Origin: Obrimoposthia wandeli
Taxonomy: Eukaryota
Length of the DNA stretch: 64,000 bases
Direction: 5' to 3'
NCBI GenBank assembly: GCA_977020255.1
Contig: CDROCS010000412.1
Coordinates: 1 to 64,000, forward strand
Made by a program: the position numbers and the translations under genes. This document shows, piece by piece, positions 6,248 to 33,498 of this stretch; within the stretch, counting starts at the first letter, position 1; each line of letters starts with the position of its first letter. The notes beneath the pieces are model-generated. The model had not been told where the DNA came from. It saw only the letters and a program-made list of their open reading frames with translations, and searched no databases.

Positions 6248-7704
6248 CAGTCTCTCTCTGTTAGTTTTATTTAGAATTTTATCCAAAAGTCAATAGAAGA
6301 GACGTTTTATAATATAAATTCACAAATATTTTTGCTAATTCTGGTTTACCCCTCACAATTGAGGATTCCATTTTAGATAAATTTTCATATGGCGATCGTT
6401 CCGTGATAAGAAGAAGAGGCCTGTGGCAGTACAACAATAACAACGCAATTCAAGACAATATTGAACATGATTTTAGTGACAGCACAGAAAGTCCACCATC
6501 GTGCAACCTGGAATCCGAAGACAACAACAATGAGTACTTCACGAGAAGCAAATCAACAGACGACAAAGGACAATCTCATATTAATCGAATCGGTATTGAA
6601 CAAGACCACATGGCAAGGCCACAAGACCCGGCATTGGGTGAAATACTCCAGCTATTGCGTGGCATGGACATGCACCTACGTTTACCGGATAATACTCCTG
6701 CTCCTACAGTATTACCTGGACCCATCGAGCTACAAAGCTACGGAAATGTCAAGCAGGATACCCTTAGGGCGCTCGTAGATAAAGACAAACGTTCTCAGCA
6801 CGAGGCAGAAGGTCTGTATAAGCTCAGCGAGCATATAGCACCTCTCGTGGCAGGGGACGATTTCCAAGTCGTGGTTACAACACGCGCCGAGGCCGTGGAC
6901 GCCCGATCACAATCAAAGAGTTCATTCGCTGCCACCAGAGTGCACATCCGTATGTAACTCAAGTCTCGCCAGTCAGCAATGCAGAAACAGGTGGTTTGCA
7001 ATCAACACAACCTGCGTACTTCAATGATTCGAGTGGTTGAAAGGTTTTCCACAGTAACAAAAGAGATGTGCTCAAGAAACCAGATCAACCGTCGCTTCTT
7101 GAAGCCTATAGGCGTAGCTTACTATTGGGAAACTTCACAGTGCTGGAAGATGACGGAAACAGCGTCAATCTCGACGCCCAGGTACATGCTCTAGCCACGC
7201 TTGGTTTTGCAAACTACGTAGCCCAAGTGCTGGAATGGCCATATGCGATTAATTATCTACACACAGATCTCTGGCGTAGTTGTTTCCTCTTTCCACAGAA
7301 TCAGGCTCCTACATGGCAATGGGACGAGCTACATGACAACGAGGTATAGGCTACAGATGCCACCCAGTTTTCAGTGGCAATAGTACAGTTGCGACCTACA
7401 CGACACATACACATGACGCTCAAGATTCCAGAAAAAAATATTTACATCCATGAAGCCAACCAAGGCCTTATTTGGACCTCAAAGACCAAGAGGATTCCGA
7501 GTGCCATGATTGAGTGGTGGATCCTGATAGCGCTGCAGATCTTGGTAACTATCAAATAGCTAAAAATACAATACATTATGTCAGAGCGGAATCCAGCAGA
7601 CAAGCCATCAAGAGACATCTTAGCCACGGCAGAACTAGAAGAGGATTCGACTCAGGCCTTTCAGGCGATGACATATGATATTTAAAACTAACAGAGAGAG
7701 ACTG
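6248..7704 (+). mobile_element. Element bounded by 21-22 bp inverted repeats, carrying a decayed tyrosine-recombinase-like coding region
   Basis: cagtctctctctgttagtttt (6248..6268) is the exact reverse complement of 7684..7704. Internal GC-richer ORF pieces (6403..6957, 7068..7349, later frames). The C-terminal AADLGNYQIAKNTIHYV and the paralogous RDYMFITIMLAN...LSAITIEEF resemble YR boxes. Confidence 0.45.
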
Positions 7705-7849
7705 GCATCTCTATATTTTTTGCCATATCTTATATGATAAACTCCCACCAATCACATCACGCCTGGAATTGTAGTTGGTAGGCTGAGAGTGATGTGACGG
7801 TAAGGAGCGACGGTTGATCCGGTTTTTTGGCCACATCTATTTTGTTACT

Positions 7850-8292
7850 GTGGAAAGCTTTCTAACCACTCGAATCATTGAAGTACGCAGGTTGTGTTGA
7901 TTGCGAACCATATGTTTCTGCATTGCTGACTGGCGAGACTTGAGTTACATACGGATGTGCACTCTGGTGGCAGCAAATGAACTCTTCGATTGTGATCGCG
8001 CTCAATTGTGGTAGTTGTACGTTGTTGTAAACGTTCGCCAACATTATTGTGATAAACATATAGTCCCGCCACCATCGCAAATAGGCTGGGTCACTATGGG
8101 AGGCCAGCTCCTCTACCAACCGGCGGGCGTCCACGGCCTCGGCGCGTGTTGTAACCACGACTTGGAAATCGTCCCTGCCACGGGAGGTGCTAGTGCGTCG
8201 GGCTTCGTACTTGCTGATCTCATCAGCTGATAAATCGTTGATGCGTGCCAATTTGGAGACTTTGGCCTCTGCAGCCGTCCACCCCACTCTCG
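7850..8292 (-). pseudogene. Inverted partial copy of the 6.4-7.1 kb coding region, retaining ~120 bp that is missing from the plus-strand copy
   Basis: Both copies encode DDFQVVVTTRAEAVDAR. The minus copy continues RLVEELASH...RDYMFITIMLAN...QLSA before rejoining at atcacaatc(g/a)aagagttcatt. Confidence 0.75.
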
Positions 8293-10429
8293 AATATAGA
8301 AAATTCAATTGGAGTGTTTATTCGTATTTCAGAAAAACATACTTATTTTAAACAAGATCCCGAAATGATTCCAGATTTTATTTTTCCTACGAACTTGTGA
8401 ACTTCAGATTTGAAAAGACATTTACAGTGATCTGCAAAATAAATCAAACAAGATCCTTTACATCGTAATGGTTTATTTTCTATTACATACGATATCGCTG
8501 CAGAAAAAGTACCAAAATCAGAATTACCTTAATTTATTAACAAATATACTTTGTAAACGTTGGTAGACAAAAATATAACCGAACTTCCGAAACCAAAGAA
8601 ATATTTTGGGTTTTTAAAATAAATATAAAGTGTCTAATTTCTTATGATTTCTTCTATTTCTTTCTCGCATTCTTTTCCCCTACTCATTAGTAGAATAAAC
8701 AATCTAATATAACTTATGTATATTTTAAGAGATCCTCATGTACCAAATCAGATAAAAGTACAACTTAAATGTAACTTAATAAAACTTAAAAGAAAAATAT
8801 TTGACTTAGGTAACGAATTCTTAGATAAGAATAATAATAATAAGCAAATTTAGTTGATTTAATATATGTAACTGATCTAAAAATATTTTTTTTAAATTAT
8901 AAATTTAAAACGGAATCAAATCCTAATTTTCGAAAGTGCAAATAGAAATACGACCTTAAAATTGTTCAGTTAACATTTGTAAAAATTAATGTGAATGTAA
9001 TGGCTTATTCGACGAGTTACAAGGACAAGTTAAATCGATTACAAGCGAAAAACCAATTTATCAGTGGCGACTGATAGTTCAGCACGATTCACTATCAACT
9101 GAAGGCTACCATATTTCTTCAGTACCTACTTACAATTTAACAGGTGCTGTTGACTCGCAGGTACCGACAAAAATATTTACGAAGTATAAAAATTTCTTTA
9201 CGACTAACATTTATGCATTTGAGCAGATTTCACACACTAAAATATATCAATAATATAAATCATATCAATTACGATTATAGAACTGATAAACTACCATTAT
9301 GCTGAAAGCAATAAAATTGAAAATGCAAATCATCTGAATGACACAACCAAAGGTCCCTATACTAGTCAGGGTTTAAGGGTTGATAGCAAGATAGGTAATG
9401 CAGATAAATCGTATAGAAAACATGGACGTTGAATTGGAATTATGTAGTCACCGTTATCAATTCGTTGCATCTGAATAGTTTTCTTATGTTGCAGTGTAGT
9501 CCTCGGCTTTTCCAGACAAAGTATGAAACTTGATTCGATTTTGTTGATCTATGCGTATTCAATTCGATTTTCGTACCTCAATGCAAAAAATGTCTAATAA
9601 GGAAATATTGAAAGACTTTTATAAATAAAATATAGTGACGTTCGAAAATATATATTTTATTTAATAAAGAGTTTAATTTTAAGTTCTAATAACAACTAAA
9701 GTATATGTCAAAATAATTTTCAAGAAAACATCATTTTATATCAATTATCAGACATTGTCTATAAATATAATCTTAAATTGAATAAAAAATAATCTTTCAA
9801 TAATTTTAGAAATGGCTTTTGATGGCGTTTACATGTTATGTACAATATACTGTATTTATGTATGAAAAGTAAACTATTTAGTTCAGAAGAATTTTATAGG
9901 TTAGATTACAGATTTAATATTATATGAAAATATATTCAAAGTTTAATATTAAATTAATAATGTTTGCTAATATATTATATATTTTATTTATAATAAAACG
10001 TTGTTTTAACTGTTTAATTGTATCTCAATTTTTGTTTAAAAAATTAATTAAATTATACAAATAATTTCGATTAACAATAGTAACATTTTTATTCTAAATA
10101 ATTTAAATATATGTCAACTTTAATAAATTTAAATAAAATAATATTCATATGATAACTGATTTTTTTGTATTTATTTTAATATGACTGATTTCACATCAAA
10201 AAGTTATCAGTGAAAACTCGAGTCCTGTTTCAAGAAACCTTTTTTTAATTATTGTCCCATGAAATTTTTAAAAATAATGCATTCTCACAAATTTATCCCT
10301 TATACGCTTTTTAATCTGAGAACATATGTTTCAATATCTTAAAATGGGCTTCATGGAAAAACGTGAGATATGCTCATCAAGCCTCTTTTGATGTTTGTAA
10401 AATTGAGATAGAAAACTGTTTCTCAGATT

Positions 10430-11383
10430 TGTTGGGTTGTTAATAAAAATAATTAATTTTTGTCAATTTAATTTGACATTTAAAAGTAATCTAAAATGCC
10501 CACAATTAGGGAGGTTTTCAAATTCAGCCTCCGACGGGGTGGTCCCGTTTCGCCTTGCCAGGCTCATCAGGAAGGCGGCTAGTTTTTTTTGATAGAGATA
10601 AGAAAGTGGTTTTGACCACCAAAGATTTTTTCCGCCCAGAAAAGACAGCGGATGTGATTGCGGTTTGATGCAATCTGGCTGATCATCATCATCATCATCA
10701 TCATCCTCATCCATCATCCTATCGGTCAGCATCCACACAGTCACTTCTATCCTGCCTTCCTCGGATGCAGTTGATGGTGCATCGCAGAGATTGTGTGTGC
10801 AACGGAGATCGATGCAGTTCAATCCACCTGATTGCAATGGCTTTGCCAATGCCACATGCTTGCCGATTGCCGCGGGATCTTCCTCTCAGCCTACATTGAC
10901 AACAGTAACAGCAGTGAAAGAGACATACACACAGATTATCCGTTTCACCTGTTGCTGCACATCCTGTGTACTGCTGTCATTTCACATATCTGGCCTTTAC
11001 ACAAGTCCACAATCTGTCGGCTACTGCATATTGATTGATTTTTGGCAGAGGATGGAGGCTGTGTGTTGACTTTACACTTTTGATATATAAAATGCAATTG
11101 GGATTTTGTCAAGACAGAAACTGATTTTATCAAATACACAAAAATTATTATAAAAATATTTTCAGCAAACAATTGATTGAAATCAACAATTTGATATTAC
11201 AGAAACGAAGTTATTTCATCAACAATTTGATATTACAGAAACGAAGTTATTTCATCAACAATTTGATATTACAGAAACAAAGTTATTTCATCAACAATTT
11301 GATATTGCAGATTCAATTAATAAATTAGATTTTGATCATTATTTGATTTTTGGAGGGATTAACCACATATACCATTTATAACA
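10430..11383 (+). repeat. 5' LTR (954 bp)
   Basis: TGTTGGGTTG...TTTATAACA. By eye it differs from the 3' LTR by about four substitutions and one ATC unit. Contains a 36-bp tandem repeat at 11182..11313. Confidence 0.95.
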
Positions 11384-11386
11384 ATT

Positions 11387-11404
11387 TGGTGAGCTCGACA
11401 TCTC
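11387..11404 (+). promoter_or_regulatory. Primer-binding site, possibly tRNA-Trp-like
   Basis: TGGTGAGCTCGACATCTC begins 3 nt after the LTR. Its complement ends ...GTCGAGCTCACCA, resembling the eukaryotic tRNA-Trp 3' end (..GTCGGGGTCACCA). tRNA identity is inference. Confidence 0.6.
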
Positions 11405-12046
11405 GAACACAAACAAAATTCAGGTCGGAATTTCTTCATTTATTTATTTATTTTCTTTTTCATGCGATATTTCTGTAATATTTCTGATTTTTTTTTTATC
11501 ATTTCTTTAAAAACATTTGCTTTAATTATATATAAATTAATTTAAAATAAAAAACTATTTAGTCAAAACTGGATTATTTTTGATAGTATTATTTATTATT
11601 TCTCAGAAATTTTATAAAAATTGATTAATTGTGATTTTTGAGTATATCTACATTTAAATAAAATTTTTAAGTGTATGCTAAGAAATTTTGCAAGTCGTAG
11701 TAGGATTTTAGCATAAGCTAACACTTATTTTGTGAAACTCTGTCAAACTTTAAGTTAAAGTATATTATCAGAATATATTGTTGATTTGCAGTGTATTGTG
11801 TTTTCTAATTGTTGAGTAGCACAGTTTGGTTTAGTTCTTAGTAATTACTAGTAAAATTGATTTGATTTTATAAACTATATAATAATTTTGGAATTTAGTT
11901 ACATTTGCCTAAAGTTTTTGTCTACTTTGATTTTGTGACTACCTTATTTATTAAGAAATTAAAATTATCTTTTACATTTTTCGCTGCGAATTACTTGTGT
12001 ATTGTCTATTTTCATTTATTTTTAAGAATAACTTTGACTTTTTCAA

Positions 12047-12160: not shown

Positions 12161-13301
12161 AGATTAACATAATTTTGTTTCCTGAAACATAGTCGGGTCC
12201 TGTTCTCTAATTTTCTTTTATAATTTGAGTTGTGTTGATCATTTTAATCGTAAAAGTTATAGAAAAAATAATTTATTGGTTTTCGGAGTTCTGTTCACAT
12301 AAAGGCTAAACACTGGCTGTTGTCGGATAGAGTTTTGAACACTGACAAATATATTAAAAGAGTAATCAACAAACGAAGCACAACTCAAATACAATAAATT
12401 TTGAGAAAATTTTAACATTTTCCTATGAACTGGTTTACCAGTAAAGATTCGTTTTTTGAGAATTATAAATTGGAGTGGATTTATCTATTAGAGGCGTAAA
12501 AGTAAAATAAAAACTAAAAAGATAATAAAAGTTAAAATAATCATATAAATATATTTTTGAATAAAAAATAAAATTGATCAAAAAATTTAAAATTTTGTCG
12601 CAAATTGTCTTGTTTCCCAAGTTACGTCGAGTGCTATCATAAAGACTATATACTGGTTGGCGGTGGTAGTGCTCAAAGTGATAAGGGACAGAGATTTTTG
12701 AGAGAAATTTTTGAGTCTTGTTATTGTACTAAAAAATTAAAAAACAAAATAAAATAAAACTTCGGAAAGATAAATTTTCTCCAGATTTTCAGAGAGCGTG
12801 TTTTTAATATTGATAAGAGAGTTTGATTTTGAGATTGACTAAATAACTTTTACGAATTTCACCGAAATATTTTTAGTTTCAGTACACAGTACGCATTTTT
12901 CATTTTTGCAATATTTGATTTTGAAACTTTAAATAAATTACTAATAACACAAACCCAAAGATCTATCACAAAAACAGACACACAAAATAAGTAAACAAAA
13001 ACGTAGCGCTAGCCTTCACTGGAGAAGAATTCAAACAAGATTACTTAGGACAGACTCCAGTGAAAAAACGATTCAAAGACCCAAATCACAAATCAGTTTT
13101 ACAAGAAATAACGATTTACTTACACAGACTTCCCCACTCTCAGAACATCTGGACCTAACATTAACCTCAGATACAGAGAGTTTACCTTCACCACAAACAT
13201 CTGACTCGGATAGTTCGTCAGAGATAACGGAAGCAGTAGCCGTACCAGAACCACATATTGTACAAATAAACAACGAACAAATAATCGATCAACCTCAAAT
13301 A

Positions 13302-14528
13302 ATGGCTGAACATAAATTAAATGTTCCTTTAGACGCTTTCAATGGCGATAAATCTTCACTACCCGAATTTTTAAATAGATTTGATTCATTTGCTCAGGCA
13401 TTTGAATGGACTAATGTAGAGAAACTTAGGGTTTTTCTGGCGTATTTAAAAGGCACTGCCTTAACAATTTATAGAGGATTAAATAATGAACAGAAAGACA
13501 CATGGGACCATTTAGTTCAGAATTTTCAAAATATGATTTTAGGTGCACAGTCTGAATAAAATTACCTTAACCAATTTAGGCAACGTGAACAACATTTGGG
13601 AGAACCCACAAATATTTTTGCAGTTGAATTACGAAGATTAGCCTTAAAATCATTTCCCGGAATTGAGGAAGTCTTAAGAGAACGTTTGCTCCTACATCAA
13701 TTTCTATACGGGCTAAACAGTAAAATAAAAAATCACCCAGCACTACTAGAAGTAGAAAATTTTCAGCAAGCTGTAAATAAGGCTCAACTTGTAGAAACAA
13801 GATTAAACATGTTACAACAATCTGAAGTTTCAGCATTAACCTTTGAAAAAATACAAAGACCAACAATACCACCAAATTTCAATCAAACTCAAAACTATAA
13901 CCCAAATACACAATCTAATTACCAAAGCCAACAACAATATACACCACCGACAAATAACTTTTATAGAAATCAAACAAACAGAAACTATACAGACTCACAA
14001 ATTACTCAAAGACCTTTCCAAAAATGTACAAATTGTGGACTGCAAAATCACACAATAGAGAATTGTTATAAAATAACCAACAACAAATTTTGTAGATTTT
14101 GTAAAAAAGACAATCATACTATTGAAACTTGCCGAAAATTGTTATACAGACAAGGTAATAATATAAGACCACAAAATAATAACTTTAATAATCTTAATAA
14201 TAATTTCAAAAATACAAATAGTAATTTTAGAAGCCCATATAATAATTTCAATAATTAAAATAATCAAGCTAAATATTTTAATACTAATACAAAATTTTGT
14301 AAAATTTGTAATATGAAAAATCACAATACTGATGAATGTAGCAAACTAAATACAATGATGAACCAATTTGGTAACACAACAATAAAACAACCACAACCAC
14401 AGAGTCAAAAAACAGTACAGTTTAACAATCAAAATCAACAATATGCTTACAGAAACCCAATACATACTATTGAAAACACTGATATAACTCAGGAAATTGA
14501 TGAGATTAAGGCAACAAGAAATAGATAA
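13302..14528 (+). CDS. gag: Gag (capsid plus three CCHC zinc knuckles), interrupted by one frameshift (~13558) and one in-frame TAA (14256..14258)
   Basis: FNGDKSSLPEFLNRFDSFAQAFEW capsid-like segment. Knuckles CTNCGLQNHTIENC, CRFCKKDNHTIETC and CKICNMKNHNTDEC (C-X2-C-X4-H-X4-C). Confidence 0.85.
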
Positions 14529-14624
14529 TCACTACAAAGAAACACATCAGCAATACCAAAACAATGAACAAAACACAAATAGTACCAACTCTCAATCCGA
14601 ATTCGGAGAAATATTTAGAAATGG

Positions 14625-16710
14625 TTGTCTAACATTAAAAAAAAGAACACTCAAACCACTCAAACACAAGATAAAAAATCGAAAAATAAAAATAAACGAA
14701 AAACACCAAAAAATAGTAAAAAGTCAACTATTAAAAATACATATAATTTTAACAAAATCATCCAGAATCTATGGAAAATAATTCAAATAATATTTATGAT
14801 ATGTATAATTACAAATATAATAAAACCAGTTAATGCCTTGGAAGCGTATGATTGCTCAAAATATAGTATTCGAAATAAATATTCCTTAATGGATTTACAA
14901 CAATGTGCTGATGCCGACCCTAACGAAGTAAAAATCAAAACCACCAAGTTATTCCATGTATATCAGGAAACAGATTTCATAAATACAGAAGTTTTCGAGT
15001 GTAGGGTACACGTAGAAACATTCATAACATATTGCGGACAACACAGCCATAATTCAATTGTCAAACCTGCACTAGGAAAAATACCAATAATTGTCGATGC
15101 ACTAAATTGTAAGGACGCTTTTGCAACAGGAGAACTAAGAATAGATAGAGAAATTAAAGTACGAGCAGTAAAAAATAAAATTATACAACAAATGATTACA
15201 GTAGTAGGAACAATAAAATCTGACGGTGCATGTACAATAGGCACATACGTTGTGATGGGAGTCAAACAAAGTGGCTTAGTAGTTAAAAAAAACTTTGAAG
15301 TAGAACTAAGAACGTTCAAGGCAACATTTGACCCATCTACAAATAATATGGTAACTATGCCATTTTGCGAAGCAAATATAGGTCATTGCAATACAGGATC
15401 CTCAATTTTATATTATAAGGTAAAAACAGACCAATGTAAATTAATACTCCTAAAATCTGAGATTTTTCAAATAATTCAAGGTCAAAGATTTAAAGATGAC
15501 CCGGAACTTGATCAAAGAGTGCCAAAAGATATACATAAAAAATATAGGACAAGAAAAATTCAAAAAACATCAACCCCAACTATTTTAATGTCTACAGAGC
15601 AAGGTTCTGGAATGCGATTTATTAAAAAGAAAGAGGAATCCCGATGTGGACACTCTATTTATACAACTAACTATAAAGGAATATATTTAAGTAAAGAAAA
15701 AATATATAATGCAAAAACGACACCAACAAAGTTTGACATAAAAAATTACGATTATTTTAATAATAAATTATTATTTTTATCACAAAGGATTAATGACAAT
15801 AGAAGCAATTTATAGAGAAACGATAATAAATGACTGTAAATTAAACCAAGAAATTTTGAAAACAAAATTGGCAATTATTGCTACAAATCCAGAATTAATA
15901 ACATCATTATTACCACTAGCTGATGGTACTTTTGGAAGAGTAATGGGAGAAGTGCTATATACTTATCAATGTAAAAAAGTAATAGTTAATATAAGAAATC
16001 ATAATAAATGCACTAAAGAATTACCAATTTCATACAAAAATCATTCATTATTCGTAGAACCAATCACCAGAATAATACTTTTTAATACATTCAGTATAAA
16101 GGAAATGAATTGCTCAAACATAATGGCATCTCATTATCAAATCTCAAAGGATATTTGGATATCACTCCCAAGAAGAGACATAGTTGCTCAACCATTAAAA
16201 TTACAATTAACCGACCTCAATAACGACATAGAAATAAAATCAGACAATGAACTCAATACAAAAGGTATATACATACAAGAAGACATAGACAAATTAAGAA
16301 AAGAAATTTTATTTCCTCAAATTAGATCACGAATTTTAACACAAATAATTGAAAGATCAGTACCAAATGGAATTGGCCGTCCTGATTATGATTTATTACT
16401 TTCTCCAAATCATTTCATAAAAGCTACACAAAATACAATGTCAAAAATATGGGGAAAATTTTTAATTTTTGGTCAAGCATTTTCTGGACTTGTGGGAATA
16501 TATGCATTGCTAATATGTTTTAAGATCCTTTTGAGTCAAATTTTATCTACATATTATATTTATAAAGTTGGTGGATTGACATGGAAACTAATTTTAGGAT
16601 GTTTTCCATTTTTGGCAAAATTTCTTATATTTAACCATCATCAAAATACAGTAAACGCATTATCAAACGAAATGCGAGAAAAAAAATTTACAAAAAATAG
16701 TAGACAATAA
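14625..16710 (+). CDS. env: Envelope glycoprotein of class III type (chuvirus G / herpes gB-like), split by one frameshift at ~15800
   Basis: Basic leader plus hydrophobic signal ending ..NIIKPVNA|LEAYDC. Cys-rich ectodomain. YFNNKL...IY...C...LAII..NP...GEVLYTYQC segment and C-terminal FGQAFSGLVGIY...IK hydrophobic anchor, as I recall for chuvirus-like glycoproteins. Confidence 0.75.
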
Positions 16711-19453
16711 AAATAAAGAGAATACAGAATCTGCACAATACCCCGATTTAGAAATATATAAAGAAGAAATAAAAGTTCAAAAATCAGCTGCACCAACAAT
16801 ATATACTATAAATCAAATGAATAATGATAGACGACCTTATGTAAAAATTGAAATAAATGAGTATAAATTAAAAGCTTTAATTGACACAGGATCAAGCGTA
16901 ACAGTTTTGGACGAGTCTTTCTTAAAACCACACCAAATATTAGTACTTCTCACAGATAATAGTCAAATAACAGCAGCAAACGGTCAACCCGTAAATATTA
17001 TTGGTAAATTAGATTGCATTTTTAAAATAGGAGATAAATTTATAAAAATACCTACTAGAATAATGAAAAATTGTCCATGTCAGATGATAATAGGAATAGA
17101 TACATTAAGGAAATTAGGAAACAATTTTCATTTCGACTTCGAGAAAAATCAAATTAAAGACATTTATAGACCAAACGCTAAAAGCGAATACGAATTGGAA
17201 ATAAAAGGAGATATCATCCTTCAACCTAGAACAGAAACAATATTACAATTAGAAACTAACATAGTTACAGAAAAAGACATCTTATTCGAACCTTATAAAT
17301 ATCAACAAGAAACACTAAATAACGTTCTACCAAATATAATTTTTAAAATAAAAAATAATACAATACCAATCAGAATACTAAATGGAGATATAAACGAGAT
17401 TCATCTAAAAGTAGGAACACGCCTTGGAAAAACAAGTGTTATAGAAAATATAGAATTAATTAATAATGAAAAAATAGAAGACAATATAACTGTAGAATTC
17501 GAAAATATTAGATTAAATGATTATGAGAAATCAAAATTAAAATCATTAATAGAAAAATATGACGTAATTTTTGCAAAAAATGAATATGACCTTGGACGAA
17601 CAGATTTAATTAAACATAACCTTCCGTTAACTATTAATACAGCAATCAAACAACGACCTTACCGTATCCCATACGCTTACAGAGAAGAAGCTCAAAGACA
17701 GGTAAAAGGAATGTTAGAGAATAAAATCATAAGAAGAAGTTTTTCAGCATGGACATCTCCAGTTGTTTTGATAAAAAAGAAAGATGGTTCACTGAGATTT
17801 TGCGTAGATTACAGAAAATTAAACGAGATCACACATAAAGACACATATCCGCTTCCAAGAATCGATGAAATCTTGGATATACTAAAAAATGCAAAAATAT
17901 TTACAACCTTAGATTTACAAAGTGGATATTGGCAGATAGAAATAGATGAATCAGATAAAGAAAAAACAGCATTCTCAACAGGAGAAGGATTATACGAATT
18001 TAACGTTTTACCTTTTGGATTAACAGGTGCTCCAGCAACATTTCAGAGATGCATGAGCCACATTTTGATGGACGCCGATCATGTCATGGTCTATATCGAC
18101 GATATTCTAATTTTTTCAAAAAATTTTGAAGAACATTTAAAAGATTTAGAAAATGTATTTCTTAGATTAAAAATAGCAGGTTTAAAATTAAAACCAAAAA
18201 AGTGTGAATGGATGAAAGACAAAGTGAATTATCTAGGTCACGCAGTATCTGCAAAAGGAATTCAACCAGATGAAAGTAATATAGAAAAAATAAAGAATTT
18301 TCCAATCCCAAAAACAATAAAAAATATACAAGAATTTTTAGGACTTGCAGGATATTATCGTAGATTTATCAGAAACTTTGCACAAATAGCAACACCATTA
18401 AACAAACTTATTAAAAAGGATGAAAAATTTGAATGGGAAACGGAACAACAAGAGTCATACGAGTACTTAAAACAAAAATTGATTGAAAAACCTATATTGA
18501 GATATCCTAATTTCAACAACTCGTTTCTAGTAATGACTGACGCAAGTGGATATGCGTTAGGAGCAGTACTAGGACAACAAGATAATAACGAAAAAGATCA
18601 TGTGATAGCTTACGCAAGCAGAGGTTTTAAAAAACACGAAATAAATTATTCAATAGAAAGAGAATGCCTCGCTATTTGTTTCGCAATGGAACATTTTAAA
18701 CATTACTTATTAGGTCGAAAAGTTCACGTTTATACTGATCAAAGACCATTACAGTGGCTACTAAATCATAAAGATACAACATCTAGATTAATGAGATGGG
18801 CGTTAATTCTGCAAAAATATGATATTGAAATTAAATATAGAAAAGGTAAATCAAATGCCAATGCAGATTGCCTATCTAGAATAAGAGAAGAAGTAAATGT
18901 AATAAATTCCAATGACACCGAATTAAATATTTTTACAATAATCAAGGCTCGATATGATGATAAAGTAATCACCGATCTTCAAAGCAAAGATACGGAATTA
19001 CAACAAATAATTAAGTACATCACCATCAATCAAGTTCCAACAGATGAAAAATTAAGAAAACATTTAAAAATTCATGAATCTCGTTATAAATTCAGTAACA
19101 ATATTTTACATTATTTAAACGATAAAAATCTGTACTCACTAGTTATACCTAAAGAAATACAATGCCAATTACTCCTTCAATATCATAACGGAGCTTTAGG
19201 AGGACATATTTCAACAAAAAAGACACATTCGAGATTAAATTTAAAATATTATTGGATTGATATGAAAGAAGATGTAAAAAATTGGTGTAATACTTGTGAA
19301 ATATGTCTTAAGAGAAAAAACACTTTACGTACCACAAAGATACCTTTAAAACCAATACGGTATCCATCAGCCCCCATGGAAACTGTTGCCATGGATGTAA
19401 TGGGGCCATTACCTGAAACACCCCGAGGAAATCGATATATAATAGTATTTTAA
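16682..19453 (+). CDS. pol: Pol: aspartic protease, RT, RNase H and integrase HHCC domain
   Basis: ALIDTGS protease, YIDD RT, MTDASG..ERE..YTD RNase H, HNGALGGH..CEIC zinc finger, first catalytic D (AMDVMG). The frame is open from 16682, upstream of ATG 16817. Confidence 0.95.
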   Translation, partial: KNLQKIVDNKNKENTESAQYPDLEIYKEEIKVQKSAAPTIYTINQMNNDRRPYVKIEINEYKLKALIDTGSSVTVLDESFLKPHQILVLLTDNSQITAANGQPVNIIGKLDCIFKIGDKFIKIPTRIMKNCPCQMIIGIDTLRKLGNNFHFDFEKNQIKDIYRPNAKSEYELEIKGDIILQPRTETILQLETNIVTEKDILFEPYKYQQETLNNVLPNIIFKIKNNTIPIRILNGDINEIHLKVGTRLGKTSVIENIELINNEKIEDNITVEFENIRLNDYEKSKLKSLIEKYDVIFAKNEYDLGRTDLIKHNLPLTINTAIKQRPYRIPYAYREEAQRQVKGMLENKIIRRSFSAWTSPVVLIKKKDGSLRFCVDYRKLNEITHKDTYPLPRIDEILDILKNAKIFTTLDLQSGYWQIEIDESDKEKTAFSTGEGLYEFNVLPFGLTGAPATFQRCMSHILMDADHVMVYIDDILIFSKNFEEHLKDLENVFLRLKIAGLKLKPKKCEWMKDKVNYLGHAVSAKGIQPDESNIEKIKNFPIPKTIKNIQEFLGLAGYYRRFIRNFAQIATPLNKLIKKDEKFEWETEQQESYEYLKQKLIEKPILRYPNFNNSFLVMTDASGYALGAVLGQQDNNEKDHVIAYASRGFKKHEINYSIERECLAICFAMEHFKHYLLGRKVHVYTDQRPLQWLLNHKDTTSRLMRWALILQKYDIEIKYRKGKSNANADCLSRIREEVNVINSNDTELNIFTIIKARYDDKVITDLQSKDTELQQIIKYITINQVPTDEKLRKHLKIHESRYKFSNNILHYLNDKNLYSLVIPKEIQCQLLLQYHNGALGGHISTKKTHSRLNLKYYWIDMKEDVKNWCNTCEICLKRKNTLRTTKIPLKPIRYPSAPMETVAMDVMGPLPETPRGNRYIIVF

Positions 19454-19481
19454 TTTACAATTTTACAAATTATATTAATTT

Positions 19482-20345
19482 ACAAGATGGCCAGAGGCTT
19501 TCCCAACACATGATCATAAGGCTGAAACCATCGCGAAGGTTTTAGTCGAAAAAATTATTTTTACTTTCGGTGCACCCCGAAAATTATTAACCGACAAAGG
19601 TCCTGAATTTATAAATAATGTATTAGAATCAATAGCTGAAATCTTTCACATTAAAAAGATCAATACAACACCATATCACCCTCAAACCGACGGATTAGTA
19701 GAAAGATTTAATAGAACCCTCGAAGATATGATGGCATCATACACAAACAACAACCAAACAGATTGGGATTTACACATACCCCCATGCCTTTTTGCATATA
19801 GAACATCAGTACTTGCATCTACAGGAGAAACACCTTTTTACCTTATGTTCCTCAGAGATCCTCAAATGCCTATTGATCTAACATTACTACAACCTACTAC
19901 ACAGTATCTAGAAATACCTGAATACAAAATAGAAATTAGAGAAAGAATAAAACTAGCATTTGAAAAAGCTAAATTATTTGTAAAAAAGATACAAGAAAAT
20001 TACAAAGAATATTATGATAGAAGAACTAAACCATCAAATATAAAAATCGGAAGTAAAGTAATGATTCACAATCCACAAATCAATGTAGGATTATCACACA
20101 AATTATCAAAACCATACAAAGGACCATATACAGTTATTAGTACCAATGGAACTAACATAACAGCCAAACTCGACAATGAACCAAAATCAAAAGAAATAAG
20201 AACACATATAAACAGATGTCGAGAAATACCAGAGGAAAATACAAAAGTAAAAAATCACAAATATAACTTAAGATCAACTAACAATAATACTGTTCTACAA
20301 ATGTTAACTATAAAAACTCACAAAAACAAAACAAGACTAAATTGA
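19482..20345 (+). CDS. pol: Integrase catalytic core and C-terminus, after a frameshifting insertion at ~19451-19481
   Basis: TRWPEAF...LTDKGPEF...TTPYHPQTDGLVERFNRTL, GPY motif (KPYKGPY), and YNLRS end. Confidence 0.9.
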   Translation, partial: TRWPEAFPTHDHKAETIAKVLVEKIIFTFGAPRKLLTDKGPEFINNVLESIAEIFHIKKINTTPYHPQTDGLVERFNRTLEDMMASYTNNNQTDWDLHIPPCLFAYRTSVLASTGETPFYLMFLRDPQMPIDLTLLQPTTQYLEIPEYKIEIRERIKLAFEKAKLFVKKIQENYKEYYDRRTKPSNIKIGSKVMIHNPQINVGLSHKLSKPYKGPYTVISTNGTNITAKLDNEPKSKEIRTHINRCREIPEENTKVKNHKYNLRSTNNNTVLQMLTIKTHKNKTRLN

Positions 20346-21622
20346 GTCATCAAACTAGAAATACAATAAAAATGTCAATAAAAGAAATATGTAAAATAAT
20401 GATGTTATTAATAATATATTTTACAGTAAAAAGTAACATAATAAAAGTAAATGCTATAAATCTGAATGAAAATCAATTAATAGTAAAAGACGAAATACAT
20501 AGATACGACTCATCAACACATCTCATAAAAAAATTTGGACTAATTACAATAATACCTGAAATCACATCAATAAAGTTAAAAATATCACTCTTTACAAAAA
20601 AATTAGGAAGAATTCAAATAATACAATCTGAAAAAAATCAAATAATAAATATTTACAAAATCGAATCAAAAAATTATATAATACCATTTTTAAGAACAGA
20701 AACACAATACAAAATAAGAGTTAAGTCAAATTAAAAAAATATAACACTCTATGAAAGAATTATAGAAACTCACTTATACTTAGCCTCAATATTAAAAACA
20801 ACAGCAAAATATATAACAAAACATCAAATCATGATAAATTGGGAATTTCAACTTAAAATAGATAATTTAGATAAAACCCTCATTAGAATTAGATATAGAG
20901 GATATAATGATCATTTTTGGAAAGACGCAGAAAAACAATTAGAAAAAACACAAATCAGAACAAATATAACTATAAAAAATATAAGATATCCAGAAAAAAT
21001 AATTATGGATAATAGAGAATGTGTAATTACTAACAAACCCATAATGTATAGACAATGGGGACAACAATTTGAGACTTGTAAAAACCTAACAAACTTAAGG
21101 ATTTTAGGAAATAAAATATCCAAATTATACCAACCTACGATTTATTGTTGTCAATGGTCAGTAATTACAATTAGGAAAAATATCAAAGAAACAACCATAA
21201 AACAAATATCACATACTACAACATTCACAACAAAGACTTATGAAATTACAAATCAAAATATTATCACAGAAAATAAAACAATTAACAAAAAATTAAAAAC
21301 AACAGAAACAATGCTCTATAAATCATTTAATAAAAGTCTAAAAATACACTTTAGTAAACAAAAATACTCAAAAAATATAAATAACAAGGAATTTTTTATA
21401 ACAATCATAATAATCGAAACCTGCACATTAATCATAAAAATAACATGGAAGATCATTAAAGTAAAAAATAATACAATTTTCAAAAATCATTATCGGACTA
21501 AGTATTGTGAACCACCTGGCCCATTTATGACACCCATCATTCCTAGCTCTTCAAACTCATCTAACGTGTCAATAAATACAATAATTGAAAATAATAAAAA
21601 GAAAATAGAAATTTTTTTATAA
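20342..21622 (+). CDS. Type I membrane protein with FN3-like ectodomain, one in-frame stop (20732..20734)
   Basis: ORFs 20342..20734 and 20831..21622 share a frame, and only the TAA separates them. Signal peptide ..NIIKVNA|, YIIPFLRTETQYKIRVKS and INWE..IRIRYRG FN3-like motifs, Thr-rich stalk, TM FFITIIIIETCTLII, short tail. Confidence 0.55.
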
Positions 21623-21776
21623 AATTGTCATAAGAAATACATGAAATAAAATACTAAAATAAAAACTAATCATAAAATAAAGTAATTATAATGTAGATAA
21701 AGGAAAGTGCGTATGTGTTTAGTTTAAATAGAAGATAGTAAAAAGTAAACTTAAAAACTTATTAACATTTTAGAAA

Positions 21777-22085
21777 ATGAGAAATTCAAAATTAGTACAA
21801 AATAATAGAAGAAGATATAAGAGACAGAAAAAATGGGAAAATAAATTGTTGATAGAGAATATAAATCTGAGATCGCATTTAAAAGACAAGGAAATGGAAT
21901 GTGAACGAATGAATAATGCTTTTAACGTGGCAATTGAAAGATTGGAACATAGCCAAACAAATCAGGAAATACTAGTACAAAGACTCAGAGAAGCATTAAA
22001 TTCACTAATATCCTTACGATCAATGGTGAATCACTTGATGGGATTCCAACATATAGAAAGCGACGATTCTGGATGCGACAATTAG
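21777..22085 (+). CDS. 102-aa basic/coiled-coil accessory protein inside the retroelement
   Basis: Intact ATG ORF with RRRYKRQKK followed by heptad-like helix; no family recognised. Confidence 0.45.
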   Translation: MRNSKLVQNNRRRYKRQKKWENKLLIENINLRSHLKDKEMECERMNNAFNVAIERLEHSQTNQEILVQRLREALNSLISLRSMVNHLMGFQHIESDDSGCDN

Positions 22086-22457
22086 TAAATTCCCCAGTTA
22101 GTAGAGTAAAAATCATTTAAGAAAAGAACAAGAATGAAATCAGAATTATGAGCATGTTTTTATTTTTTTTTGAGAAATTGGTGTTTATTGAAGGGGAAAT
22201 AAAAATCACTTGAGTAAAAAACGATAAGTAAAAATATAATAGTGTTAAATAGTGATATAATGTAATGAAATAAACTTAATATCTGTAAATAAACATATTC
22301 TTACATACTGTCATTTTAAAAACTCTTAATTTTTTTGTTGAACATTGAAACAAGAACACAATATGAAAATCAGACTTTAATTTTTGAGAACAATAATATT
22401 TTATTCTTGCATGAACTCTGACATCTTTATTTTTATTTCTGATTGTGTGCTTTACAG

Positions 22458-23586
22458 ATGGAACAATCAAGCTCAAACCCCCATTTGAATTGGCAGGTTG
22501 TTCCGCGGGGAAAGAGAGAAAAGTCAATAGTACTAGCAGATAAACGACCTGAAATGGCAAAAATGGCTAAATTCCTTTATGGAAAAATAAGACAATTCAC
22601 CACTTTTTTCTTTAATATGGCCAAAAACGTTTGAAAATCAAACACAACTTCCTAATAGGATTAAGCTCAGAGATACAATTAGAAGGAGCATAATCCTAAA
22701 CTATAACAATAAAAAATCTACAGATAGAAGACTGTTAGATATTATTAAACCCATCCCAACATGCACAGATATTGAAATCCATATGGCAAAGGACCGCGGT
22801 TTCTTACGGCATAATAAATGCAAAAAGTTTAGCATTCTCCTTTTACAAAATCATTCCTATAGAATAAAATGGCACCAAGTCACACCAGACTATAAAATTC
22901 ACTTACCCAATGGCCATAATATATTATTCATAGAGCAAAACATCCAACCCAAACCTGTTCAAGTTTGCCACTTAACAGTCACCCCCACTAGTCCACAGTT
23001 ATTTTTTGTCGATTGCGAAATGGTGAGAAAAATGAATAACCAACAAACCTTAGCCAGTATCACCATAATGGACAAAAGTGGAAAAATCATATTAGACACA
23101 CTATGTAATAGCCAAGACAGAATCAGGTCTTACGTCACATTTAAGACGGGACTAACCGAGAATAAACTGAGAAACCAACCTGATTCTAAGGAGATAGTGA
23201 AACATGTTCAGTCTTTATTAAGAGGCAACATCTTCGTTGGAACGGGAATTGTTAACGACCTAAAAGTGTTAGGATTGAAAAAAGATGATTTTTCAAAGAT
23301 TGTGGACTTGGGCGCAACAAAAACCATTCTACAAGATATGAATCGTCGTGAACAGGCGGGATTAGCAGGAATGGTTAAATTCTTTTTTAATAAGATCATC
23401 CAAAAAGATACCCACTCTAGCCTAGAAGATACCACATGGACTAGACAAATTTTCCTTTTTAAAGAACAAGAACTGCTAAAAGAATGTGGTTTGACCGTCT
23501 CTTTTCCCCGCGTAACCAACGCTAATTTTCCTGTCGTAACCGAGGTTATAGATCTCACCTCCTCTGATTCCGAGGATGATGATTAG
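22458..23586 (+). CDS. DEDDh 3'-5' exonuclease (REX4/ISG20-like) with N-terminal extension
   Basis: FFVDCEMV (ExoI D,E), VGTGIVNDLKVL (ExoII D), THSSLED (ExoIII H,D). The frame of the 22783 ORF is open back to 22591, and one extra T in the 22604..22609 run would join it to ATG 22458. Confidence 0.85.
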
Positions 23587-23918
23587 TGGTAGGAATTTTT
23601 TTTTTTTTTTCGTCAAAGTGTTTCGAGAGAAATCAGGATAAATGAAGTTTTTAAAAAGTAAACACTACTAAGTTAATCGCATTGTGGTTGATTTTTATCG
23701 AAACACTAAAGAAAAAATAGATGTTTTTTCTTGCCTGAGTATGCTCAACGTTATATGATATTATTTTACTTACAGAACTCGTGTTTGGTAACAATAATTG
23801 ATGTGTAATAAATATATATATATATTTTTTTTAGATAAACAATTACCAAAAAACTATAACAGTTTATTTTCTTTTAATTACAACGTCAGAGGTCTGACTT
23901 GGTTTTCCCCCATAGGAT

Positions 23919-24875
23919 TGTTGGGTTGTTAATTAAAATAATTAATTTTTGTCAATTTAATTTGACATTTAAAAGTAATCTAAAATGCCCACAATTAGGG
24001 AGGTTTTCAAATTCAGCCTCCGACGGGGTGGTCCCGTTTCGCCTTGCCAGGCTCATCAGGAAGGCGGCTAGTTTTTTTTGATAGAGATAAGAAAGTGGTT
24101 TTGACCACCAAAGATTTTTTCCGCCCAGAAAAGACAGCGGATGTGATTGCGGTTTGATGCAATCTGGCTGATCATCATCATCATCATCATCATCATCCTC
24201 ATCCATCATCCTATCGGTCAGCATCCACACAGTCACTTCTATCCTGCCTTCCTCGGATGCAGTTGATGGTGCATCGCAGAAATTGTGTGTGCAACGGAGA
24301 TCGATGCAGTTCAATCCACCTGATTGCAATGGCTTTGCCAATGCCACATGCTTGCCGATTGCCGCGGGATCTTCCTCTCAGCCTACATTGACAACAGTAA
24401 CAGCAGTGAAAGAGACATACACACAGATTATCCGTTTCACCTGTTGCTGCACATCCTGTGTACTGCTGTCATTTCACATCTCTGGCCTTTACACAAGTCC
24501 ACAATCTGTCGGCTACTGCATATTGATTGATTTTTGGCAGAGGATGGAGGCTGTGTGTTGACTTTACACTTTTGATATATAAAATGCAATTGGGATTTTG
24601 TCAAGACAGAAACTGATTTTATCAAATACACAAAAATTATTATAAAAATATTTTCAGCAAACAATTGATTGAAATCAACAATTTGATATTACAGAAACGA
24701 AGTTATTTCATCAACAATTTGATATTACAGAAACGAAGTTATTTCATCAACAATTTGATATTACAGAAACGAAGTTATTTCATCAACAATTTGATATTGC
24801 AGATTCAATTAATAAATTAGATTTTGATCATTATTTGATTTTTGGAGGGATTAACCACATATACCATTTATAACA
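23919..24875 (+). repeat. 3' LTR (957 bp)
   Basis: Near-identical to 10430..11383, ends TATAACA followed by GATT. Confidence 0.95.
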
Positions 24876-25879
24876 GATTCAATATGCATTTAAATTCGAT
24901 AAGAATCCCGGAATTTAAATGTAAATTCATTGTCATACACAATTGTCTTCTTAACAATTTTCTAAAAACTCTAAACGCAAGTAATATTTAATTTTGATAA
25001 AAAAAACTTTTAAAACTGTATTTCATTTATGTAATCGAACTCTCATAATAGTTGAGTGCTCCTAAATATTGTAATTTCATTTAATTATACTTTTTTATAG
25101 AAATTATCATAATAATATAATCTATATAATTAAGAATTTAATATAATTAAAAGGCTTAACTGTTTTTTAATCAACTAAAATGTGAGGGTAAAAGTTCTTC
25201 TCAAATTCAATAAATGCTGTAACAAAATATCCGTCCTAACTTTAATTAGTGGTTCTTCAAAACGGATACTGTGTAAATTAGCTAGATATATAAATTTTAA
25301 TGTAATTTTTAAAGACATTAAATTAATAATTATAAAATAGGTATACAGATATATTTTCTAAATTATTTTTCACCTAAATTGACTGCAATAATTTTAAAGT
25401 TTTATTCTTATGTTTTGACAAAAATGATTTTTAATAAAACTAAAAAATTTATGATTTTAAGTAGTTGCTTTTAAAACTGCTTAGTAGTGTATTAGTAAAA
25501 AATAATAGCACAGCCTTAAAAATTTTAATTAATAAAAAGAGCAATAAAACGTTTCTATCACTATAATTTTATTAAAATAAAGTTGTTTTTTCAAACAAGA
25601 AATTTAACGAAATAATTGAATATTTTTTAACTAACTTTTTAAATTTTAAAAATGTTAAGGAATCCAAGATATGCTTGCAAACTAATTATTGAATTCATGT
25701 TTTATGCAAAATATAATTTTTAGTAATTTAAATTAAATAAAATTAAATCATTTTTTATAAAAACATTATTTTTAATTTTAAATGTTTTAAATTTTCATAA
25801 AATTTTGAAATTATTTTAAATTATTAATATGTCATATGTTATAATTATTTTATTAAATAATTAATATAACTTTGATATA

Positions 25880-31364: not shown

Positions 31365-33498
31365 CTAACAAAGACAGTCACGTACTGCATCTATATTGCA
31401 AAAACCTGCAAATTTATGTAAATTTATGTAAATACCAATATATTTAAAATAAAGACAAGTATTTCTAACACATATATTCCTTAAAATCACAAAGGAGAAT
31501 AAAAATATGTACAACACATATAAAAAGTGACCATAGGCGACTGAACGGTTTTTCTCCACCCACTTGCGCTTATCATCACTACTGCTTAAGGCAATTTTAC
31601 TTAACCTTACAGTAAAAAGTTGATGATTTAGCGAGCTTATACGTTGTTGTTGTACACGCTCGCTAACGCCACTCTCATATACGGCTAAGTAATTAGAGTG
31701 CCTAATACTCGTCTGTCGGAGACTAATACCTTTCGCTCTCATCTGAGATTCACCTTCTGTAGTCTCTAGGCTATATGATTTTGGTCGTAGAAAAATCCCT
31801 TGCCTATAACTAAATAATCCCTTACTCTCATCTTTAAATTTTCCTATCGCTGTATTAATCGTCGTATAAAGCGGATGGGTTTTTGGAAATTTCGAGGTAT
31901 CCAACAGTCCATCAGCAATCATAGCAGGTAACAGTGATTCTTGAACATTGACATTATTACACTTCAAGAAAAAGCTATCAGTGTCACCCGCTATAATTCT
32001 AATGTCGCAGTTAAATTGAACTCGATATTTCTCCAACTGCTCATATTGTAGCTCATACATACGAAGTTTGCTTAAATCTAATACCGCCTGGCCCATGTAA
32101 CTAGGACGATCCAAAACAATATTTTCCTTATCCAGTAAAACTGCAATAAGGTCCGTGTCGATTTCGATTGTCCTACGAAAGTGGGCTTTACTGCAATAGG
32201 TAACCAGCTTCTGTGGAGTATTACAAATCCGGAGGTTAATTCTTTTCATTAGATTCTCAATGAGTTTTCCAAATAAAGAATTCACCTTCAGTTTGTAGTA
32301 ATCCCGCTCGAAATCTGTTGTAGCCGCAGCTCTTTTGAGAGAATTATCCTCAATATTTTTTGAAAAAACAATAGTTTGTTCAAACTGTATTGCTCTATAT
32401 ACAAAATCTACCTTAGCACCAAGTCTAACGTACATTTGTAGCAATCTAGAATGCACAACATAATGTTTCTTAGGGTAATGCGTTAATAACAATTTTTCAG
32501 TCTTACACCCTGGTGGACGCTGTTTAATTGGAGCAAGGGGAAGATCGTCGAATTTATTATGAAGCTCGTTGGGAATGGATAAATCTATTTCCAATAAATG
32601 AGCGAAGCGACTACAGGATAAATCTATTGATTTTAAGCTGGAGATAATATTCCCCAACTCTAACCGATCAGTCACCCAGGAAAAGTTACCACAAGGTAAA
32701 AACTGGGACATAGCCCACCCGTACAAATTATTTACATCAATGTACAAAAGTTCTGTACCATTGATGGCGTCCACGCGGTGTTCATTAACAAATGTCATAC
32801 CCCCGCGAATCCCGGACCGGAAGAGTCGGTACAACTCTGGATCCTGTATTAGCTCGACTCGCACAGGAGGAGAAGAAGAAGCCGGACGAAGCAGGGATTT
32901 GAAAGCACTCGCGAAAGTCAGTCCTGGAAATAAAAACATTTATTAAAATCATTGTGAAAATCATTACTTTGAAAATCATCTATCTAACAAAGACAGTCAC
33001 GTACTGCATCTATATTGCAAATACTTGCATCTTTATGTAATCAATAGTAACAAGAACTACATTTATTCTTATACATGTATATATATATATATGTGTTAGT
33101 GTCTAAAATTAGAAAAAATTAGTAAAATACAAACCAGGGATGGAGAAGAAATTGAGTGGCTCCAATCCATCGTCAGCAATGGCCTTAGTCCGGAATGCTG
33201 TAAACACGTCTGCTAGAAGGTAGACGTCCATCTTCATATAGACCAGCATATAGTCCCAGAGCGATGAGCAGCCGCTCTGAGTCCAGACCATCTTCGCCAT
33301 TTCATATTGTGCTGGCTTGATCTTTTCATCCCACTTTGGCGGTAAGCTGGTGATTGCGCGAAGAGCAGTCTCTGATACTGCCATATCGTATGGGAAGATT
33401 CCCTTGGCGCTCACCAGATGTTGTGAGAAGATGTGTTTTACTACATCAATAAAATTAATTAATCCGGGAAGAGTATATAAGAGAAAAAATAATTTCAT
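31365..33498 (-). CDS. polB: Family B DNA polymerase of protein-primed/Polinton-like type, two exons, 5'-truncated
   Basis: KGIFPYD, Y..MDVYLLADVF (ExoIII), GIRGG, YIDVNNLYGWAM (Pol I), KLKVNSLFGK (Pol II), IAGDTDSFF (Pol III), ..AYGH end. Removing intron 32924..33134 restores FFSIPG|LTFASAFK. No ExoI/II coding found upstream. Confidence 0.9.
32924..33134 (-). other. 211-nt phase-1 GT-AG spliceosomal intron in polB
   Basis: Donor CCT G|GTTTGT, acceptor TTTATTTCCAG|GA CTG; AT-rich interior; frame preserved. Confidence 0.8.

Follow-up and report, generated by a model that had tools for sequence, protein, structure and literature searches.

A conserved accessory gene encoding an AlkB-fold and DEDDh protein, a predicted RNase, on enveloped Ty3/gypsy elements of Obrimoposthia wandeli

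What does an LTR retroelement gain, if anything, from an exonuclease of the REX4/ISG20 kind placed behind its pol gene? The question is raised by a stretch of 64,000 nucleotides (contig CDROCS010000412.1, positions 1 to 64,000; hereafter the window) of the AT-rich, 1.35-Gb assembly of Obrimoposthia wandeli. As the sequence-only reading of this DNA had noted, the gene lies in sense between two LTRs; these are 99.3% identical, and the 14.4-kb element that they enclose has a primer-binding site (PBS) and is flanked on both sides by a GATT duplication (Table 1). The PR-RT-RH-IN order, the TG..CA LTRs, the PBS and the target duplication are those of Ty3/gypsy elements (Metaviridae). Its genes follow each other as gag, a chuvirus/gB-type env, PR-RT-RH-IN, an extension without known match, a small coiled-coil ORF and the exonuclease. 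The env, matched by PF24664, forms one long frame in siblings, and its position between gag and pol is that of GAG-ENV-POL errantiviruses of the gB type. In the window copy gag, env and pol are interrupted, as is the exonuclease near 22620; siblings are open at the same places.

Table 1. Features of the exonuclease-bearing element in the window, and loci of exonuclease types G and H elsewhere in the genome.
Feature	Position	Strand	Basis or remark
Target-site duplication GATT, left	10426..10429	+	Sequence
5' LTR (TG..CA), carries 36-nt tandem repeats	10430..11383	+	99.3% identity to 3' LTR
Primer-binding site, starts TGGTGAGC	11387..11399	+	Sequence; siblings start alike
Predicted splice donor CAG/GTCGGA	11420..11429	+	GT or GC donors at corresponding place in other types
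gag, stop inside in window copy	12948..14255	+	Retrotrans_gag E 0.003 (below cut-off); Cys-His knuckles in translation
env, Monjiviricetes/chuvirus-type fusion glycoprotein, between gag and pol; frame break in window copy	14619..16707	+	E 9e-30 and 1e-56
pol: protease, RT, RNase H, integrase; break near 19453-19479 in window copy	16655..20342	+	Pfam/ORFs
Post-integrase extension without Pfam match, with hydrophobic stretches; same frame as pol in siblings; type-variable	20288..21619	+	
Small coiled-coil-like ORF behind predicted acceptor (TTAG ends 21773); missing in types E, I, J	21777..22085	+	
Pyrimidine tract and predicted splice acceptor CAG immediately 5' of ATG	22425..22457	+	
Exonuclease gene, type A; ATG at 22458, stop ends 23586; frame break near 22612-22630	22458..23586	+	
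N-terminal double-stranded beta-helix domain, AlkB/2OG-Fe(II)/cupin fold; no conserved HxD..H triad	22550..22980 (approximate)	+	Model of open sibling copy
DEDDh domain, ISG20-like	22993..23500	+	D23011, E23017, D23257, H23413, D23428
Acidic tail VIDLTSSDSEDDD	23545..23583	+	Presumed resemblance to phospho-SUMO-interacting motif
Atypical pyrimidine-rich tract replacing polypurine tract, before 3' LTR	23900..23918	+	
3' LTR	23919..24875	+	
Target-site duplication GATT, right	24876..24879	+	
Types G/H loci	L079:2580-4076, L081:3783-6434, L105:7813-8886, L085:2937-3896		Among Maverick genes; one type G with 34-aa repeat tail

From its ATG the exonuclease frame of the window copy ends after 58 codons (TGA 22632-22634) and the remainder is open from 22591; the break is therefore placed in a T-run, as a real lesion or an assembly error (Table 1). 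In many sibling copies the frame is open over 382 codons. The gene had been read as a REX4/ISG20-like exonuclease with all five catalytic-type residues in place, to be checked by an HMM search: Pfam RNase_T matches its C-terminal half above the cut-off (E 2.2e-6; 28.8 bits against 24), and the five residues are indeed intact, aligning as D, E, D, H, D with the ExoI, ExoII and ExoIII motifs of ISG20. They read D-x-E in ExoI, D in ExoII and H-x4-D in ExoIII, the last being of the DEDDh form and not of the DEDDy or RNase D type. The closest sequence matches among solved structures were plant SDN1, ISG20 and ISG20L2, with the five residues in register.

The model of an open sibling copy (pLDDT 84.4) has two domains, of which the C-terminal one adopts the DnaQ-like fold of DEDDh exonucleases and finds its best match in ISG20 (Z 22.1, rmsd 2.0, 162 residues aligned). 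Modelled alone (pLDDT 89.9), the N-terminal domain is a double-stranded beta-helix that matches ALKBH6 (Z 11.6, rmsd 5.1, 136 aligned), Ofd2 (Z 11.6, rmsd 2.8, 129 aligned) and many further 2OG oxygenases and cupins at Z 9-11; a search of the ESM Atlas with this domain gave no usable match. Judged from alignments and not from model geometry, its HxD..H iron triad is not conserved, one His only being kept, and the invariant residues are Y, P, N, K, R, H and G. The C-terminal tail resembles VIDLTSSDSEDDD in types A-D of the gene, has the reversed arrangement in F, I and J, and takes neither form in E; we take it to be similar to a phospho-SUMO-interacting motif, with a hydrophobic core and an acidic/serine run. 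By motif and model, the protein is predicted to be a 3'-5' RNase.

The possibility, raised together with the first description, that the gene occurs in the window copy alone is contradicted by a genome search with the exonuclease domain, in which 150 of 4212 candidates were scored, 83 at 90% or more and 67 at 75-76%. All ten siblings that were fetched have the order env-pol-exonuclease, eight of them with an LTR pair in view, and searches with distant relatives brought the number of exonuclease types inside LTR elements to at least eight, 34-82% identical. As a sample blind to the cargo, 40 elements were drawn at steps from the 150 best integrase matches; the exonuclease was found within 5.5 kb in 37, in five types (E 19, C 10, B 5, J 2, F 1), type E being the commonest, and the remaining three had no 3' LTR in view in that stretch. 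A Pfam RNase_T search of the genome also returned many strong single-copy matches, which were set aside as presumed bacterial contigs in the assembly.

No LTR pair encloses type G (three places) or a degenerate type H; both are located in stretches rich in Mavericks, and may have been domesticated or passed on to Mavericks. Between the LTRs of two giant elements of 20-24 kb, related and also of gag-env-pol order (C422, about 100800-124700, minus strand; C461, 743400-763700, plus strand), no match to the exonuclease family was found, so that, with types G and H, the exonuclease is neither confined to gag-env-pol elements nor required by all of them. The C422 element contains BIR-like, RING and phosphatase-like stretches and is Burro-like in this respect. 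At C5740:55000-70000 (L133-L134), five exonuclease cassettes of several types stand within 15 kb, with an LTR start after four of them; one of the cassettes is the donor-to-ATG copy described below. In the window itself, a 524-codon ORF (31365-32939, minus strand) resembles part of a Maverick-type DNA polymerase B, and similar ORFs are found near the exonucleases of types G and H.

Selection on the gene was estimated from one natural copy per type, using only frames open over 340 codons. Between types the dS of the exonuclease is at least 1.1, with synonymous sites saturated in 18 of the 28 type pairs; the ten unsaturated pairs have dN/dS of 0.07-0.30, and the ratios for A-B and F-I are 0.10 (bootstrap 0.06-0.15) and 0.07 (0.04-0.12). 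For changes common to several copies the ratio is 0.05-0.25, for private changes 0.28-0.51, and all five catalytic residues are kept in 71 of 72 open frames (68 by pattern, three more by inspection). Values so far below 1 do not agree with the neutral evolution of a transduced host sequence, which the sequence-only reading had named as the outcome that would undo its proposal.

The backbone of these elements is far younger than the gene. RT is 89-99% identical between elements of different types, and integrase dS between types is 0.04-0.20 (F-J 0.02), a divergence lowered by construction because the sample was drawn from top-scoring matches. In gag and pol, types B, C, F and J share 93-97% identity with the window element, but their LTR body gives no match to it and their first 5' UTR little; the exonuclease of B and C is 70-83% identical to the window copy in nucleotides, that of F, J, E and I has no detectable identity to it, and the 3' UTR, like the exonuclease, diverges between types up to no detectable nucleotide match. 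Divergent exonucleases on a far younger backbone imply that old cassettes are exchanged on a homogenised core. The exonuclease is a conserved accessory gene, present in swappable types on a common enveloped gag-env-pol backbone, and not passive cargo; that it is selected for the benefit of the element is a much safer statement than any one function proposed for it.

Other parts of the element and of the window deserve a brief description. The post-integrase extension has signal-like and membrane-like stretches, is 46-96% identical between types and assorts independently of the exonuclease type; it is perhaps a second variable cassette, encoding a surface protein. A sub-threshold Pfam match of the coiled-coil ORF to Anthrax_toxA (E 0.03) was judged to be due to chance. 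At 36811-59644 about 15 copies of a 1.5-kb unit are arranged head to tail, and the minus-strand ORF of the unit reads like a Rep of CRESS-DNA viruses, with a Walker A motif GKTGVGKT and a weak match to Gemini_AL1_M (E 0.006). Long inverted repeats around about 1.3 kb at 6854-8175 possibly delimit a non-autonomous DNA transposon. Rfam gave no match in the 64-kb window.

A phmmer search of 1.84 billion representatives gave 1256 matches at E 0.001, the top two being full-length proteins without a name, at 32% and 31%. Among the best 150 of these 1256 matches, 25 have the N-terminal domain in common (27 rows, with two cluster duplicates), and none of the looked-up relatives sharing that domain bears a useful name. 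In a midpoint-rooted tree of the DEDDh domain, from which type H and P0140 were excluded as long branches, 36 family rows are split from 26 cellular-like rows at 100/100, and FastTree with all 159 rows supports the family split at 0.998. An exon from the REX4-like gene of the host itself groups with the cellular rows, outside the element family; the family thus does not join the cellular REX4-like proteins, the host's included, as a REX4/ISG20 orthologue would. What stood of the identity first given to the gene is the intact-looking DEDDh domain of ISG20/REX4 fold; a recent origin from a host REX4/ISG20 gene did not survive the tree and the extra AlkB/cupin-fold domain. On the evidence of its sequences, the family that combines AlkB-fold and DEDDh domains is separate, old and element-borne.

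Relatives of the family were also found in JGI metagenomes, where they make up seven of 226 pattern matches, all in one unrelated data set. Two of them (L175, L176) occupy the same slot, downstream of a gB-type env and of a pol that shares 50% identity with that of the window, and two others (L178, L180) are part of arrays of single-exon RING, TRAF, coiled-coil and exonuclease genes, most of which start at TAG/ATG, on contigs from which pol is absent; the remaining three have little context. None of the 103 pattern matches in IMG/VR viral contigs was related, and word-index protein searches gave no match for a single protein and only an input sequence for a profile. Many family members in the clusters P0023, P0036, P0017 and P0034 lie on ENA contigs 14-17 kb long, which is the length of a complete element.

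We then considered how the gene might be expressed from its distal position. A pyrimidine or AT tract followed by YAG abuts the exonuclease ATG in every type inspected, despite differing upstream sequences, and a GT or GC donor-like site is located 20-45 nt past the PBS in the types inspected; in several types (L188-L196 and sibling leaders) the donor-like dinucleotide past the PBS is GC instead of GT. When the genome was searched for the pattern of PBS, gap and start codon, a single place was found, on C5740, and the control gave none. This copy consists of LTR, PBS and leader, an ACAG/ATG joint, a decayed exonuclease and then an LTR, and nine of ten other loci with the same leader have GC and an AT-rich stretch at the same base. 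The donor-to-ATG copy has the form expected of a spliced mRNA after reverse transcription, and it points to such an origin; as ACAG stands on both sides of the joint, a template switch at microhomology could give the same junction. Pattern searches for spliced genomic copies of the coiled-coil ORF or of type E found none, and no donor-to-ATG joint was among the matches listed for contigs of four sequencing runs of one sample. A join of the PBS to position 21754 in the sequencing-run contigs was considered as a splice and rejected; its end does not coincide with the predicted acceptor, and we interpret it as a deletion. The exonuclease is likely expressed from a spliced accessory mRNA.

We propose, at what we consider even chances, that the product of this conserved and likely spliced accessory gene acts as a 3'-5' RNase against host RNAs that silence or sense the element. 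Splicing of the donor just past the PBS to the exonuclease ATG would yield an mRNA composed only of LTR, leader, exonuclease and 3' UTR; as these are the parts that differ between types, such an mRNA would escape small RNAs raised against the common gag-env-pol. The DEDDh domain would trim the 3' ends of single-stranded RNA in the manner of ISG20 and plant SDN1, the AlkB-fold domain, without its iron triad, may bind the substrate or a modified base, and the acidic tail could bring the enzyme to SUMO-rich silencing sites, while host conflict would maintain a balance of old types and recombination would homogenise the backbone. The TRAF and RING company in relatives, a fold near that of small-RNA-destroying enzymes, the deep alleles and the mRNA predicted to consist of variable parts speak for counter-defence; the purifying character of the selection and the lack of the acidic tail in the commonest type, E, count against it. 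More elaborate, and in our opinion possible but doubtful, is a lineage resembling complex retroviruses in which an RNase made from spliced mRNA and targeted through SUMO, with a dead AlkB-fold domain as its reader of RNA modification, destroys piRNA or siRNA guides, with ancient balanced alleles and hypervariable mRNAs; made of hypervariable parts only, these mRNAs would escape the very guides that the RNase destroys.

Other functions would also account for some of these observations. The nuclease could help replication by trimming the tRNA primer of the element, its RNA 3' end, its cDNA ends or the plus-strand primer at the atypical tract, travelling in the particle; a gene carried by almost every element and held under purifying selection would suit an essential step, no polypurine tract precedes the 3' LTR, and the same role is proposed for the rotifer DEDDy ORFs in the sections of PMC5408684 that were available. 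However, C422 and C461 have a similar atypical tract but no family match between their LTRs, eight types that are 34-82% identical would not be expected to persist in the service of a near-identical RT, and the gene is separate and probably spliced, outside the polyprotein, such that we find this role rather improbable. Unlikely, too, seems a factor of exclusion or antiviral defence, degrading the RNA of rival elements or viruses and sparing its own type, with the types as incompatibility groups. ISG20 is an antiviral RNase, host PML-like DEDDh nucleases reportedly restrict LINE-1 (PMC10123124), and LTR and leader sequences differ along with the type, as that idea would have it, but the types recombine freely onto one backbone and co-occur, as in the five cassettes on C5740, and a common gag-pol RNA offers little distinction between self and rival.

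The retention of five catalytic residues across types, in nearly every open copy, is difficult to reconcile with a protein-binding regulator comparable to Cer1 CERV, acting in nuclear export or on chromatin, with the nuclease secondary; we regard it as quite improbable, even though the N domain lacks the dioxygenase triad, the tail is acidic, and spliced accessory regulators are known in Ty3/gypsy (PMC10309623, in the part available). As for a host REX4/ISG20 sequence passively transduced and drifting neutrally, it would explain the ISG20/REX4-like fold and motifs, but is refuted by the dN/dS values and by the clade apart from the host REX4 exon, and the extra domain and the same slot in distant elements also speak against it; we give it hardly any credence.

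To our knowledge, no enzymatic suppressor of piRNA silencing has been proven in animal retrotransposons. An RNase directed at silencing RNAs would here be a concrete, assayable candidate, being a compact enzyme under strong constraint that comes in eight natural types; the family that carries it is young and very abundant, and relatives occur in other data sets. Regardless of the substrate, the protein belongs to an AlkB-fold and DEDDh protein family without a name and is a plain example of how old alleles of an accessory gene cycle on a backbone that is homogenised.

The family has the fold of cellular ISG20, ISG20L2, REX4 and plant SDN1, scoring Z 22.1 against ISG20, and their five catalytic residues; unlike them, it forms a separate clade (100/100), has the extra N-terminal domain, is coded without an intron and is element-borne, and in most members the GH of ExoII is replaced by GT, GS or GV. 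No report of a DEDDh or cupin/AlkB-DEDDh cargo in retrotransposons was found in the full-text literature searched, a body to which subscription papers and Repbase do not belong. The CERV protein of Cer1 in C. elegans is comparable as an extra Ty3/gypsy protein with an effect on RNA fate, much as in complex retroviruses; by its description CERV is an export factor without nuclease, and the accessible text of PMC10309623 does not mention an exonuclease in Cer1.

Closer in architecture are the giant Burro LTR elements of planarians, whose accessory genes encode RING, TRAF/MATH and BIR domains (PMC6431247, accessible part). Their env is in frame between gag and pol, as here, and accessory domains of the Burro type appear in C422 and in L178/L180, whereas the same part of that paper gives no exonuclease for Burro and the present element measures 14.4 kb. 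GAG-ENV-POL errantiviruses with an HSV/gB-type env, described from nematodes, bryozoans and flatworms in the sections available of PMC13524379, share with it the Ty3/gypsy pol, the gB/chuvirus-type env between gag and pol, and many young copies; neither 'exonuclease' nor 'DEDD' occurs in the accessible main text. The nearest precedent for the cargo itself is found in bdelloid rotifers, in which Juno and Vesta LTR retrotransposons and Terminons carry a DEDDy exonuclease as ORF3 (PMC5408684 and PMC6431247, with DEDDy ORF3s of rotifer LTR elements also in PMC6338049, each as far as accessible). The sequence-only reading did not know the gene as standard Ty3/gypsy cargo; for DEDD exonucleases in LTR elements a precedent exists here, of the DEDDy type. 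Both the rotifer protein and the present one are of the 3'-5' DEDD exonuclease kind, with intact catalytic residues, encoded by an extra ORF behind pol and drawn from a gene pool common to mobile elements, not from recent host capture. The gene described here differs in its DEDDh domain of ISG20/REX4 fold joined to an AlkB/cupin-fold domain, and in standing beside env where the rotifer ORF replaces it; and, whereas the available part of PMC5408684 gives no significant departure from neutrality for the rotifer ORF, it combines clear purifying selection with splice signals and eight co-circulating types.
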